Of a stretch of 37,640 nt of DNA, positions 29,136 through 32,458 are shown piece after piece. Made by a program: the position numbers and the translations under genes. The stretch comes from a virus. The notes beneath the pieces are model-generated. The model saw only the letters and a list, made by a program, of their open reading frames with translations. It was not told the origin of the DNA and did not search any database. Every line of letters starts with the position of its first letter. Position 1 is the first letter of the stretch. Where the stretch lies: the UHGV virus genome UHGV-1707198, one strand, 5' to 3'.

Positions 29136-29285
29136 TTCCATACATCTCATTAGCTTTTATGGGTGGCTTCCTAATCGGCTTCGGCATCTGTCGTGATTTA
29201 ATTAAGCAGGAACTTAAAACCAAAACACTGTGCATCGGAAAGCGTGTGTATCGGGTAGTTCATGAAACAAAGGTTAGAAAATGAG
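29133..29285 (+). CDS. small membrane protein (50 aa), paralogue of 28757..28936
   Basis: Manual translation MIPYISLAFMGGFLIGFGICRDLIKQELKTKTLCIGKRVYRVVHETKVRK; shares the hydrophobic helix and the R-x-Y-R-[IV]-V-x-E-T motif with the 59-aa ORF. Confidence 0.35.
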
Positions 29286-29571
29286 CAATTTAACTTCTTG
29301 GGACTGGTGGTTGGCCACCTATTTCTTAGCGGCCGGAGTCGCATTCGCCTTTTACGTAGGTCAGTTAGTCGTAAAACTGTTGCTGATTAAATTTGCTAGT
29401 CATAAACGTATCGATGATGGTCTGTGGCGTCTTGGCACCCTGGTGGAAACTCGCTACGGGCAACTTAAGGAGAACGAAACCATTACTATCCAGGCGAAAC
29501 GATTCACTGCCACCATCACAAGAACACCTAGTCGTAGAGTGGCCTTGATCAAAAAAGTCACAACCGAATAA
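29281..29571 (+). CDS. small membrane protein
   Basis: 96 aa; ATG overlaps the upstream stop (ATGA); N-terminal transmembrane helix WWLATYFLAAGVAFAFYVG. Confidence 0.4.
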   Translation: MSNLTSWDWWLATYFLAAGVAFAFYVGQLVVKLLLIKFASHKRIDDGLWRLGTLVETRYGQLKENETITIQAKRFTATITRTPSRRVALIKKVTTE

Positions 29572-29580
29572 AAATACAAT

Positions 29581-29602
29581 GATAAGTATTTACTTACTTA
29601 TC
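29581..29602 (+). promoter_or_regulatory. recurrent motif, dyad copy at the head of the non-coding leader before the tRNAs
   Basis: GATAAGTA-tttact-TACTTATC; the 8-bp arms are exact reverse complements. Confidence 0.5.
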
Positions 29603-30349
29603 TTTTGTGTATAAGATGACTTTGTTTTCGTTGAGACGCGACTGTTTGAACTTAAATACAAGTGCAAACGAAGAAGTCTATCTGGCAGTAGCCTAATAAG
29701 CCAAACACCAGCGAGGTCAGTTTCCAGCCTCGTTACCGAAATGGGACACACTGAGCGAGTGTGATTGCAGAACGCAGGAGGGAACATGAATGTTCCCTCC
29801 GATGAAGTAACAGAATGGGCGGTTGGTATATTTTCAACTCCATATGACTCCCGGATTCTTAGCCACTGACCGCCCATCCTGTTACGTCATTTTGTTCAAT
29901 TATGTCGTTTATACTGGGTTAAAAAGCGGCGACGTAGCCCGGCTGGTATGGTTAGCCAGCACACAACGTTGAGGCCATTACATTTTTATCAATTCTAAGG
30001 TTCTATTCACAGAGATACCGGCGAGCGTTGATATGTAACATGTTGGGCAAACATTCAATCGGAGTAGTGGCCTCAACGTTGTGAAGACGGGATTGTTGTG
30101 TAGGTTTAACCACTGTTGCCATTGGTGCCTGTTTTCACAACAAATGATTCCATACATCACATTGTATAAATTACAAAGTAGGTGCTGTCCTCAGAAACAT
30201 CATCTACTTAAAGATTTTGCCTTCTACTATTGAGCGAAGTCGAAAGCGTCTGGCACTAACGAAAAGTGCAAGTAGCGGTGCGTTTCCTGGCAGAAACTAA
30301 ACCGTCGCGATTGGCACTGTTGAGTAATAAATACTGGCAGTGCTGAATT

Positions 30350-30424
30350 GATGGTGTAGCTCAGCGGTAGAGCAGTTGGCTGTTAACCAACTGGTCGGTG
30401 GTTCGAATCCACCCACCATCGCCA
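30350..30424 (+). tRNA. tRNA-Asn (anticodon GTT)
   Basis: Cloverleaf folded by hand: acceptor GATGGTG/CACCATC, D-arm GCTC/GAGC, anticodon stem GTTGG/CCAAC with loop CTGTTAA, T-arm GGTGG-TTCGAAT-CCACC, encoded CCA. Confidence 0.85.
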
Positions 30425-30429
30425 ATTTA

Positions 30430-30516
30430 GGGGAGTTAGTCCGTAGAGGTAGCGGTGTAGACTGTAAATCTACTGTCATGGCGACTCGGGTGGTTCGACT
30501 CCATCACTCCCCACCA
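30430..30516 (+). tRNA. tRNA-Tyr (anticodon GTA), long variable arm
   Basis: Acceptor GGGGAGT/ACTCCCC, anticodon stem GTAGA/TCTAC with loop CTGTAAA, long variable arm, encoded CCA. Confidence 0.8.
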
Positions 30517-30520
30517 AATT

Positions 30521-30596
30521 GCCGGTTTAGCTCAGTTGGTAGAGCAGTCGTTTTGTAAGCGAATGGCCAGCGGTTCAAGTCCGTTAACCGGCACCA
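30521..30596 (+). tRNA. tRNA-Thr (anticodon TGT), probable
   Basis: Acceptor GCCGGTT/AACCGGC, D-arm GCTC/GAGC, T-arm AGCGG-TTCAAGT-CCGTT, anticodon loop TTTGTAA; the anticodon stem has one G-A mismatch and one G-U pair, so identity is less certain. Confidence 0.65.
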
Positions 30597-30604
30597 ACAC
30601 AACA

Positions 30605-30680
30605 GGTAAGAGCATTGGGCGAATCGGCGATACTGACCCACAAGGCCGTAAATCGATAGAGTCAGACCAGTGCTCTTACC
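30605..30680 (+). ncRNA. 76-nt hairpin element in the tRNA spacer (not a canonical tRNA)
   Basis: 10-bp terminal stem GGTAAGAGCA/TGCTCTTACC enclosing 56 nt; a hand-fold as a tRNA fails (no D-arm or T-arm pairing). Related stems occur at 30681..30739 and 30811..30912. Confidence 0.3.
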
Positions 30681-30916
30681 GTTGTGAGGAAGTGCAGCTC
30701 TTTGAAGCAACCAGAAGATAAGCATCTGGCTTCACAACACAACGATAATATCATTACGGTTAATCGTCGTTCATGTGCACAATGACTGGTCGAAAGGTAG
30801 TGATCTTACCATTGTGATGAATGCACAGGCTGATGTGCCGCAACTACAGTAGTGCGCGCTTTGCGGGGCTTGCTACAACCCTGTGTCGGAGTTCAGCACC
30901 GACCATCACAATAGCT

Positions 30917-31003
30917 GGAGAGTAGGGAGCATGGTGCTCAAGCGGTCTTGAAAACCGTCCCATTGTGCAAACGATGATGGTTCGATTCCATTACTCTCCG
31001 CCA
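30917..31003 (+). tRNA. tRNA-Ser (anticodon TGA), long variable arm
   Basis: Acceptor GGAGAGT/ACTCTCC, anticodon stem-loop GCGGT-CTTGAAA-ACCGT closely resembling E. coli tRNA-Ser(UGA) as recalled, T-loop TTCGATT, encoded CCA. Confidence 0.75.
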
Positions 31004-31157
31004 GACACAGCGTTGAGCGGTTTGGCCTTTTAATCAACTCGATTAAGACTCCGCTAACATAAACCAGACCGCTCAACGCTGTGATAGATAATTACGGCAG
31101 ACGTTCTTAACCATAGCTTGCTAACATCCTAGCAACACTTTTTTCAGCGCAAAATTC

Positions 31158-31180
31158 AAAGGGGCTTCGGCCCCTTTTTT
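31158..31180. terminator. bidirectional rho-independent terminator
   Basis: AAAGGGGC-ttcg-GCCCCTTTTTT, with A-run and T-run on either side; sits between the tRNA cluster and the convergent minus-strand gene. Confidence 0.55.
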
Positions 31181-31195
31181 GTTGAACAGTGCAAT

Positions 31196-32458
31196 TTACT
31201 TTACATAGTCGCCCAGTTTTAATATTTCGCGCTTATATTCTTTAACCATGCTACTGGATTCAGTATAAATTCGATTTAAAAGATTATCGCTATCTTTATT
31301 CTCATTTATCTTAATGAGTGATAATTTAAATTCATAGTCATCAAATGCCACAATCAAATGGTGGCCTGGGATTATATCTTCGTCACTCTTGAAGTATATA
31401 TCTTCAAGTATGTAATCTAGTTGATTAGATTTTCTTTTCTCGATGTAATCTTCAGCCATAGCTATTACATCATTCCTGTCATTTAACCTGTTTTTTTCGG
31501 AAGGCACATCTTCGTAATGTTGCACGATTGAACAACCAATAAGGCGTGGGATGTAAACGTCAAAATGAGTAACTCTATCATTCGCGGTTTTAAGTAGTTC
31601 CTCAAAGTAGTTTCTTACATGTAAAGGCAACTTCTCAAAGTAATCATTAATTATAGGAGAACAAGGAGTTTTATAATTCATAAGAACCGACGGTACGAGC
31701 TTTGGGTCTCGAAACATCCAGTCCCTTTTAACGTCCGATGGAACATAATAACTTTTAATGATATTATCAAAATAATTTATCATTCGAGATTTGAATATTT
31801 TGTTGAATCTAAGGTTTATGAATGCATCCAGATAAGGCATATCTGAATAAGCATCATCAAAAAATATTTCATCATTGAAAAAATCATATTTATTTAATAA
31901 ACAACACAGTTTTCCCGAATTAATATGTTCACAATAATCGATCTTTAATCCAAAGATAGCAATGATCAACTTCATCTGAGGTGGGATTTTGAAAATTAAT
32001 TGTGACACATACGCTCTTTTTTCCTTTAGACATTCCCCATCAATATAAAATGAACTATCCACATACTCAAAAATATTAATAATATGCTTCACATACTGTA
32101 TTACCTCATGCTGTTTTACCAATGGGTAATATAGTCTATGTAACTCATCGCTGTTTAAATTAATTTTGCGTTTATCGATAATTTGTTTTGCAAGAAGACA
32201 TAGCTCATCATGTTGATTTAATAAGGAATCAAACCATTGTTTAAATGCACTCTTTCGCATTTCGAACAATGATTCTGTTGTTAATTGAAGGGCTGAAAAA
32301 GCTGCTTTTGCACTTTTTCTCGCTTCGTAGGCATTCCATGCTGTTGCTATAAAAGCAAATGCTGTAGCCAATGTTCCAACAATTTGACCATTTAAAACAA
32401 CCCAATCCCAAAAAATCACGGTGAGCAGTAGTATAATAATGAAAATTAAAAAAGGCAT
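31196..32458 (-). CDS. AT-rich membrane-anchored protein of unknown function
   Basis: 420 aa; N-terminal two hydrophobic helices (FLIFIIILLLTVIFWDWVV and VGTLATAFAFIATAW), then a large Asn/Lys/Tyr/Phe-rich domain. Opposite strand to nearly everything else; very low GC. Confidence 0.5.
   Translation of the reverse strand: MPFLIFIIILLLTVIFWDWVVLNGQIVGTLATAFAFIATAWNAYEARKSAKAAFSALQLTTESLFEMRKSAFKQWFDSLLNQHDELCLLAKQIIDKRKINLNSDELHRLYYPLVKQHEVIQYVKHIINIFEYVDSSFYIDGECLKEKRAYVSQLIFKIPPQMKLIIAIFGLKIDYCEHINSGKLCCLLNKYDFFNDEIFFDDAYSDMPYLDAFINLRFNKIFKSRMINYFDNIIKSYYVPSDVKRDWMFRDPKLVPSVLMNYKTPCSPIINDYFEKLPLHVRNYFEELLKTANDRVTHFDVYIPRLIGCSIVQHYEDVPSEKNRLNDRNDVIAMAEDYIEKRKSNQLDYILEDIYFKSDEDIIPGHHLIVAFDDYEFKLSLIKINENKDSDNLLNRIYTESSSMVKEYKREILKLGDYVK

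Follow-up and report, generated by a model that had tools for sequence, protein, structure and literature searches.

The window analysed here, a stretch of 37,640 nt from the viral genome UHGV-1707198, derives from a phage-plasmid of the SSU5/pHCM2-like type. It contains an RNA island, flanked on the 5' side by a DNA ligase gene and small conserved phage genes, the last of which (29281-29571) matches phrog_4507, and on the 3' side by a convergent gene that ends at 31196. In agreement with the first-pass annotation, no open reading frame (ORF) of 60 or more amino acids lies on the + strand between 29572 and 30349, where the longest has 49-50. The best explanation of the island is a unit composed, in order, of an operator-overlapped promoter, a ~700-nt structured leader, genes for tRNA-Asn, tRNA-Tyr and tRNA-Thr, hairpin cassettes, a gene for tRNA-Ser, a further hairpin and a terminator. 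On balance we take the island to be a single transcription unit of stable RNAs and, in the same reading, the first ~150 nt of its leader to be an RNA derived from transfer-messenger RNA (tmRNA), in which the mRNA-like half is kept and the tRNA-like domain is absent. The first-pass annotation had correctly described a non-coding region with a structured leader and a tRNA cluster; the tmRNA-like resume signal, the tag, the two pseudoknots and their wide spread had escaped it.

The tag module (29624-29775) comprises a 5' box, an A-rich stretch ~30 nt further on, a tag and two pseudoknots. The window reads UUAAAUACAAGU GCA AAC GAA GAA GUC UAU CUG GCA GUA GCC UAA UAA, encoding ANEEVYLAVA and two stops, and E. 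coli tmRNA reads AAAAAAUAGUC GCA AAC GAC GAA AAC UAC GCU UUA GCA GCU UAA UAA, encoding ANDENYALAA and two stops; the match to E. coli ssrA spans the A-rich stretch through the double stop. Positions -6 to -4 before the GCA at 29664 are A-U/C-A, the counterpart of A84-U85-A86 in E. coli. A permissive Rfam scan gave weak tmRNA-family matches at 29566-29747 (tmRNA_permuted, 22.2 bits against a threshold of 47; beta_tmRNA, 17.3 bits against 84), and sub-threshold matches of this kind recur in five independent lineages, with 11-29 bits outside the window. ARAGORN also reports the "resume consensus" and the tag of the module, inside a permuted call.

With just GCAAACGA and CTGGCNGTAGC fixed, and ten bases and the next codon left free, a pattern scan matched at least 120 viral contigs. 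Among the matches listed, 124 of 125 encode A-N-[DE]-[EDNT]-x-[YF]-L-A-V-A followed immediately by TAA, TAG or TGA, with synonymous variants GAA/GAG, GAT/GAC, TAT/TAC, TTT/TTC and AAT/AAC. A scan for the downstream motif only, in which the tag was not used, revealed four further modules with tags that differ at the formerly fixed sites: ANDAQFLAVA, which carries four synonymous changes (AAT, GTG, GCG and TTT), ANEEMYLAAA, AKDDQFLAVA and ANSDQYLAVA. The tag has 10 codons in every module and its substitutions are synonymous or conservative, the extra states falling mostly at third codon positions (16, compared to 7 at first and 8 at second positions). The tag frame is under codon-level selection.

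Conventional translation of the tag was rejected. Among 34 representative modules, an in-frame stop lies 6-15 codons upstream of the tag in 23, and in 22, where it lies 6-12 codons away, there is no ATG, GTG or TTG between this stop and the GCA, so that ordinary initiation cannot enter the tag frame. The +2 frame (xUG CAA ACG ...) was also discarded, as its products differ radically between lineages when the haplotypes are inspected.

The fold of the module was evaluated on two alignments, A2 with 27 modules from outside the SSU5-like group and A3 with 16 SSU5-like relatives of 55-74% identity. In A3, 99.7% of the 781 modelled pair cells form standard pairs, compared to 32-45% in controls with slid partners, and ten pairs have changes on both sides; in A2, 95.4% of the cells are paired versus 35-44% with partners slid. 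None of 500 shuffles matched the pairing values of either alignment. The first pseudoknot is 100% paired in both and is compensatory in both, with three compensatory stem pairs in A2, where its loop-to-downstream helix also alternates (GC:15/AU:12 and AU:20/GC:7). Stem 1 of the second pseudoknot is likewise 100% paired with compensatory pairs in A2 and A3, and its stem 2 shifts register and sequence by lineage while complementarity is kept (CCC/GGG, GCCCAC/GUGGGC, CCCUGA/UCAGGG and GCG/CGC). Covariation of the leader stems, which the first-pass annotation had proposed as a check, was thus found in the form of compensatory pairs among the 16 SSU5-like relatives.

The tRNA-like domain, with its acceptor stem carrying G3-U70, its T-arm and its 3' CCA, is absent. 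No genuine tmRNA is called by ARAGORN in the window, whether the threshold is the default or a lowered (-ps) one; the call obtained at -ps80 is a spurious permuted one on the minus strand (DVSEDSTYFVIYTM, followed by a stop) that does not include the tag. Across 181 loci, run with lowered thresholds, ARAGORN reports no tmRNA in 179, the other two being the E. coli ssrA control and one phage "permuted tmRNA" that proved to be a chimera stitched from adjoining genuine tRNAs. The whole 46-kb genome of phage KpV2811 contains the module and, by ARAGORN and Rfam, no tRNA, tmRNA or other tRNA-like gene. A hidden acceptor stem was sought by eye between the 5' box or its upstream sequence and the regions after the pseudoknots and after the hairpin at 29942-29960, and no consistent pairing was found. 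Each lineage has a different flank 5' of the box: a promoter, a terminator or a hairpin arm. By these membership tests the element is not a tmRNA-family member, though half of its anatomy is that of tmRNA; it defines a new RNA family that ARAGORN and Rfam 15 do not report. The searchable literature, which does not extend to the original P1 genome description, yielded no description of a tmRNA-like phage RNA without a tRNA-like domain.

A segment of one locus (L106), GGGUUCGACUCCC..ACGGCUCCAC, lies ~250 nt 3' of the tag module and is reminiscent of the T-arm and 3' acceptor strand in E. coli tmRNA (GGGUUCAACUCCCGCCAGCUCCACCA). Either a relic tRNA-like domain or an attachment site of the ssrA type could account for it.

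A BLAST search revealed that a tag segment of ~100 nt alone is common to Felix O1-like myoviruses, T1-like siphoviruses of Klebsiella and Aeromonas, and the P22-like phage HK620. The module lies inside a tRNA array in the Felix O1-like phage wV8, between the qut site and the late terminator (in the pR' leader) in HK620, and behind its own promoter in the T1-like phages KpV2811 and pIS4-A. In phage P1 the module has the tag ANDDLMMVAA and precedes trnA and trnT in the leader of the ban operon, which is under C1 control. The module is spread across unrelated enterobacterial phages, and P1, HK620 and the Felix O1-like and T1-like phages carry it without annotation. The island as a whole is 96-98% identical to that of Escherichia phages CMS-2020a and Cyrano, and the 778-nt leader is present in 246 of 5426 complete E. 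coli genomes, in every case on a plasmid of ~100-115 kb.

The most conserved part of the module is the 5' box, whose GUUUUC is invariant in 34 diverse modules and is without a universal partner inside the module RNA. The box is the reverse complement of nt 97-104 of host tmRNA, ACGAAAAC, which form tag codons 3-5. Overall the complementarity covers 8-12 nt within tmRNA nt 96-108, with extended matches of 9 nt in P1, 10 nt in the L010 type, KpV2811 and wV8, and 12 nt in L179. E. coli, two Salmonella and Klebsiella pneumoniae all have the same target sequence, which was also found in 85 of the 120 gamma-proteobacterial ssrA genes sampled, among them those of Enterobacter, Citrobacter and Aeromonas; the sampled genes of Yersinia (GACUCGCAAUAC) and Pasteurellaceae (GACGAACAAUAC) lack it. 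The same ACGAAAAC never occurs in phage tags. Both Salmonella sequences checked read ANDENYALAA and have the identical target; a Salmonella tag ANDETYALAA would have weakened the antisense idea. Consensus promoters put the predicted transcription start 0-7 nt before GUUUUCG (TTGACA-17-TAGATT in KpV2811, TTGACA-17-TATAGT in wV8). Whole-length RNAduplex comparisons of six modules with E. coli tmRNA gave energies no better than those of shuffles.

Table 1. Features of the RNA island, in window coordinates.
Feature	Position	Strand	Evidence or remark
Putative promoter overlapped by putative dyad operator	29581-29615	+	Dyad GATAAGTA-N6-TACTTATC at 29581-29602; -10 TATAAG at 29610-29615
Invariant 5' box GUUUUCGUUG	29624-29633	+	~8 nt after the -10
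Resume codon GCA, 10-codon tag ANEEVYLAVA, UAA UAA	29664-29699	+	Pattern scans, frame conservation
Helix-5-like stem CUGG/CCAG around the stop codons	29682-29711	+	Formed in each of the 43 A2 and A3 sequences
First pseudoknot	29712-29746	+	Hairpin 29712-16/29728-32; loop UUCCA (29722-26) with UGGGA (29742-46)
Second pseudoknot	29747-29775	+	Stem 29747-51/29759-63; loop GCG (29755-57) with CGC (29773-75)
10-bp hairpin (AGGAGG and palindrome of the first-pass annotation)	29777-29800	+	z = -5.0
Long irregular stem-loop, core GGGCGGT/ACCGCCC	29801-29891	+	z = -5.0
Hairpin GCUGG/CCAGC	29942-29960	+	End of the ~330-nt core common to all SSU5-like relatives
Long hairpin, arms CACAACGUUGAGGCCA.../...UGGCCUCAACGUUGUG	29962-30083	+	-47.8 kcal/mol, z = -6.1
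Rest of leader, conserved, invariant motif AAUGAUUCCAUACAUC at 30143-30158	30084-30349	+	SSU5-like alignment
tRNA-Asn (GTT)	30350-30424	+	ARAGORN; Rfam 75.5 bits
tRNA-Tyr (GTA)	30430-30516	+	ARAGORN; Rfam 41.6 bits; missing in some relatives
tRNA-Thr (TGT)	30521-30596	+	ARAGORN; Rfam 66.8 bits
Hairpin cassette, arms CACAACAGGUAAGAGCAUU/AGUGCUCUUACCGUUGUG	30598-30686	+	z = -6.1
Mosaic spacer, partly 95-97% identical to the P1 plp/upl region	30687-30916	+	Sequence comparison
tRNA-Ser (TGA), class II	30917-31003	+	ARAGORN; best Rfam match tRNA-Sec, 44.8 bits (cut-off 47)
20-bp hairpin ACACAGCGUUGAGCGGU.../...ACCGCUCAACGCUGUG	31006-31083	+	z = -9.6
Intrinsic terminator closing the operon	31158-31185	+	Terminator scan, 31158-31177

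The coordinates of all features are collected in Table 1. The island opens with a dyad that the first-pass annotation had rightly placed at 29581, and which overlaps the -35 region of the putative promoter. At the position of its -10 hexamer, relatives have the similar hexamers TATAAA, TATGAT and TATAGT; our consensus promoter scan did not call TATAAG itself, since the rule demands T at the sixth position, which is G here. The dyad motif TAAGTA-N6-TACTTA has 17 copies in the window against 1.4 expected (at most two mismatches), and its recurrence suggests an operator function for the copy at 29581-29602. The copies look like sites through which a single repressor would govern multiple promoters, much as the C1 operators do in P1. 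Copies of the dyad were noted at window positions 2384, 9296, 20800, 26067, 29583 and 37263.

Downstream of the module the leader continues with a series of stems, whose z-scores were computed against dinucleotide shuffles. Five hairpins of the island (29777-29800, 29801-29891, 29962-30083, 30598-30686 and 31006-31083) beat the shuffles, with z from -5 to -9.6. Several of them had been glimpsed in the first-pass annotation: its 8-bp palindrome is present and extends to a 10-bp hairpin, its GGGCGGT/ACCGCCC hairpin is real and forms the core of a longer stem, and its 14-bp inverted repeat also exists but is actually part of a ~20-bp stem. The stem-loop at 29801-29891 has 24 pairs, 99.5% of which are formed across the 16 relatives, with 5 compensatory. 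Compensatory changes were also found in the hairpin at 29942-29960 (GCUGA/UCAGC in one relative) and in that at 29962-30083 (GAGGCC/GGCCUC to GAGACC/GGUCUC). Directly 3' of the former, L098 and L015 run into divergent coding sequence. The latter, of 120 nt, is exactly missing in the relative L105, leaving CACG-CAACGUUGUGG. Two invariant motifs, UUAUGUCGUUUA (29900-29911) and AAUGAUUCCAUACAUC, are apparently unpaired. In many relatives UUAUGUCGUUUA could pair with the tag start AAACGAC(A); in L015 and L050, a change in this long-range helix is uncompensated.

All four tRNA genes of the first-pass annotation were recovered by ARAGORN at their proposed places, and three of them are confirmed by Rfam (42-76 bits); CCA is encoded in each. 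In the Thr-Ser spacer, the 76-nt hairpin reported earlier is real, whereas the remaining stem-loops do not stand, as positions 30687-30916 fold no better than shuffles (z from 0 to -0.7). Two arm types with variable interiors recur, CACAAC-AGGUAAGAGCAUU...AGUGCUCUUuCC-GUUGUG and CACAACGUUGAG...CUCAACGUUGUG, and occupy sites on both sides of the module as well as between tRNAs, in SSU5-like phages, P1, HK620 and T1-like phages; the arms CACAACAGGUAAGAGCAUU/AGUGCUCUUACCGUUGUG also flank the tag module in HK620, KpV2811, pIS4-A and P1. These hairpins behave like cassettes that insert and delete, and may represent exchangeable processing or stability elements. Some homologous cassettes (in P1, L010 and L024) contain the T-arm-like GGGUUCGAAUCCC. 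The earlier suggestion of remnants of tRNA-like genes finds little support in the window, such inserts occurring only in the homologous hairpins of P1 and other phages.

In 41 related viral contigs, the distance from the promoter to tRNA-Asn is ~690 nt, while the tRNA content ranges over none, Asn, Asn+Ser, Asn+Thr+Ser and all four; the Thr-Ser distance in relatives varies from 8 to ~490 nt. That the leader is kept while the tRNA content varies, together with the terminator at 31158, supports the logic of an operon. The ban operon leader of P1 (Pban, "dicF-like region", trnA, trnT, plp/upl, trnI, ban) is homologous, with the same module, tRNA-Asn and tRNA-Thr, hairpin cassettes and a repressor-controlled promoter; unlike the island, it has protein genes in the same operon. 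The P1 annotation omits the module and treats the hairpin cassettes as two minus-strand genes, plp and upl. Since the corresponding frames are broken in the spacer of the window, P1 plp and upl are probably not genes.

Compared to bacterial tmRNA (SsrA, RF00023), the phage element shares an A-rich resume signal with A at -4, a GCA resume codon without a start codon, a tag of ~10 residues with an A-N-D/E start and a small hydrophobic end, tandem stops in a hairpin, and H-type pseudoknots after the tag. They differ in that the phage element has no acceptor stem, T-arm or CCA end, and so cannot be charged with alanine. In addition, it measures ~150 nt compared to ~360, has only two downstream pseudoknots, ends its tag in LAVA (VAA in P1) in place of ALAA, and bears a box antisense to the host tag. 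Natural two-piece tmRNAs are known. In those of alpha-proteobacteria, cyanobacteria and some beta-proteobacteria, the template piece is a separate RNA base-paired to the acceptor piece, which sets a precedent for a template provided in trans; however, their coding piece has the 5' acceptor strand and one gene gives both pieces, whereas the phage element lacks an acceptor strand and has the tag region of host tmRNA as its only candidate partner. In the T4 tRNA cluster, the stable RNAs C and D are small RNAs of unknown function that are transcribed and processed jointly with the phage tRNAs; they are not known to contain a tag template. The phage tmRNAs of the mycobacteriophage Bxz1 group and Bacillus phage G likewise lie next to tRNA genes but are complete. 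A 2014 census of tmRNA genes listed only mycobacteriophages and Bacillus phage G among phages and did not report the present element (PMC4131195). The RNA of phage DS6A consists of the tRNA-like domain only (PMC4131195), the opposite half to the mRNA-like half found here.

We propose that the tmRNA-derived RNA would act in or on host trans-translation, its tag being read on ribosomes as a tmRNA template would be, by resumption and not by initiation, with the long hairpins serving as putative processing or stabilising elements that separate the RNAs. Judging from complementarity, the 5'-terminal box GUUUUCG(U) may dock on the tag-coding stretch of host tmRNA, a tentative assignment; such docking would hide the host tag, link the phage template to the host tRNA-like domain, or do both. 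A bolder and rather unlikely version is that the RNA parasitises host ribosome rescue, with a 5' seed on host tmRNA that would cover the host degradation tag and bring the phage template to the alanine-charged tRNA-like domain of the host, creating a hijacked two-piece tmRNA; on rescued proteins, a phage-specified tag with its LAVA end would replace the ClpXP degron.

A number of points weigh against these proposals. All the Rfam tmRNA scores are far under the gathering thresholds (22 versus 47 bits). Part of the tag conservation (CUGG, GCAAACGA) could be structural; the CUGG/CCAG stem is invariant and hence carries no covariation either way; and a candidate upstream pseudoknot, drawable in some lineages and absent from the Felix-like and SSU5-like forms, shows no covariation in A2. 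For the box, 5% of random 20-nt windows contain an 8-nt complement of tmRNA and 0.24% a 10-nt one, figures to be read with a target chosen post hoc, and the transcription start sites are those predicted from consensus promoters. A ribosome reading the host tag could also simply unwind a 10-bp duplex. Finally, with the tRNA-like domain lacking from both the window and the whole KpV2811 genome, we know of no route by which a template without it could enter a stalled ribosome.

An RNA that is only an antisense inhibitor or decoy of trans-translation would also fit the invariant box, its predicted 5'-terminal position, its complementarity to a host site that does not vary, and the missing tRNA-like domain. 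In this reading the box would pair with the tag region of host tmRNA and block or destabilise it, the body would titrate SmpB, S1 or RNase R, and the tag would stay untranslated. An RNA with only the tRNA-like domain reportedly inhibits tmRNA through SmpB titration (PMC4131195, citing Mao et al. 2009). Such an inhibitor leaves unexplained the kept 10-codon frame, the stops that vary among TAA, TAG and TGA, and the synonymous or conservative changes, and we regard it as unlikely. Less likely still is that the element belongs to a complete tmRNA whose tRNA-like piece went undetected, be it a two-piece or permuted phage partner or a non-tmRNA host RNA. The two-piece precedents, the GGGUUCGAAUCCC inserts in cassettes of P1, L010 and L024, and the GGGUUCGACUCCC..GCUCCAC downstream of the module in L106 point towards it; against it stand the 46 kb of KpV2811 with no tRNA, tmRNA or T-arm-bearing gene, the sole ARAGORN "permuted tmRNA" call, built from genuine neighbouring tRNAs, and a flank 5' of the box that is different in each lineage.

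Between these two in likelihood, the leader might be a processing or stability scaffold for tRNA precursors, with the tag as a decaying relic of a captured ssrA fragment. The module usually adjoins tRNAs, long stems resemble nuclease processing sites, and the cassettes come and go; however, the module also occurs without any tRNA (KpV2811 and HK620), lineages only 55-75% identical keep frame, length and stop, and no stem is as conserved as the 5' box. That the region encodes small proteins is highly improbable. Two candidate ORFs exist in the window, namely the 28-codon ORF at 29786-29869 that the first-pass annotation had singled out for its AGGAGG site and ended at 29872, and a 95-aa ORF on the minus strand (29590-29877), annotated as "C-type natriuretic protein" or "hypothetical protein" in related records. 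Neither was retained: the former is not conserved, relatives having no ATG or a stop after 9-13 codons, and the frame of the latter is lost in relatives. Neither has a Pfam or PHROG match, the region differs in length among relatives by non-multiples of 3, and the substitutions in the leader track base pairing, not codons. The AGGAGG itself changes together with its pairing partner in relatives (AGGUAGG, AGGAUAGG, AGGGACG), which identifies it as one strand of a hairpin.

By definition a tmRNA unites a tRNA half with an mRNA half in a single molecule, and a relative under codon-level selection that has only the mRNA half raises the question of how a template lacking a tRNA-like domain of its own gets to a stalled ribosome. 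This question is directly testable, since P1, HK620 and relatives of Felix O1, all of them classical model phages, carry the element. If the RNA does re-programme or block trans-translation, it would represent a phage counter-measure of a new type, directed at host translation quality control, and it might bear on old reports of ssrA dependence in some phages. The analysis also speaks against the annotations of the "C-type natriuretic protein" ORF and of P1 plp and upl.

Some further observations were made in the window and related loci. The P1 genes plp ("putative lipoprotein") and upl (NC_005856 69472-70041; L002 2575-3144) are antisense to cassettes 95-97% identical to window positions 30669-30910. 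Also in P1 (L002 1894-1995), the "dicF-like region" and a terminator-like hairpin (GCCCAUCUUCGGGUGGGCGUUUUUU) lie directly upstream of the tag module, so that the module would come from read-through or from a processed transcript. In the window, a 73-aa ORF on the minus strand (30504-30725) matches phrog_34205 over residues 44-68 only, which fall in its stretch antisense to tRNA-Thr, and phrog_34205 is probably a family of spurious ORFs on the strand opposite tRNA genes. An STnc100 match by Rfam (48.7 bits, threshold 47) lies on the minus strand of a phage tRNA island (L091 1118-1331), ~1 kb downstream of a tag module. Directly 3' of the module in wV8 (L004 1702-1780) is an unannotated, odd tRNA-like gene (Rfam tRNA, 31.7 bits), which has the acceptor CGGGGCG/CGCCUCG plus ACCA, the anticodon loop CUUCUAA and no normal D-arm.

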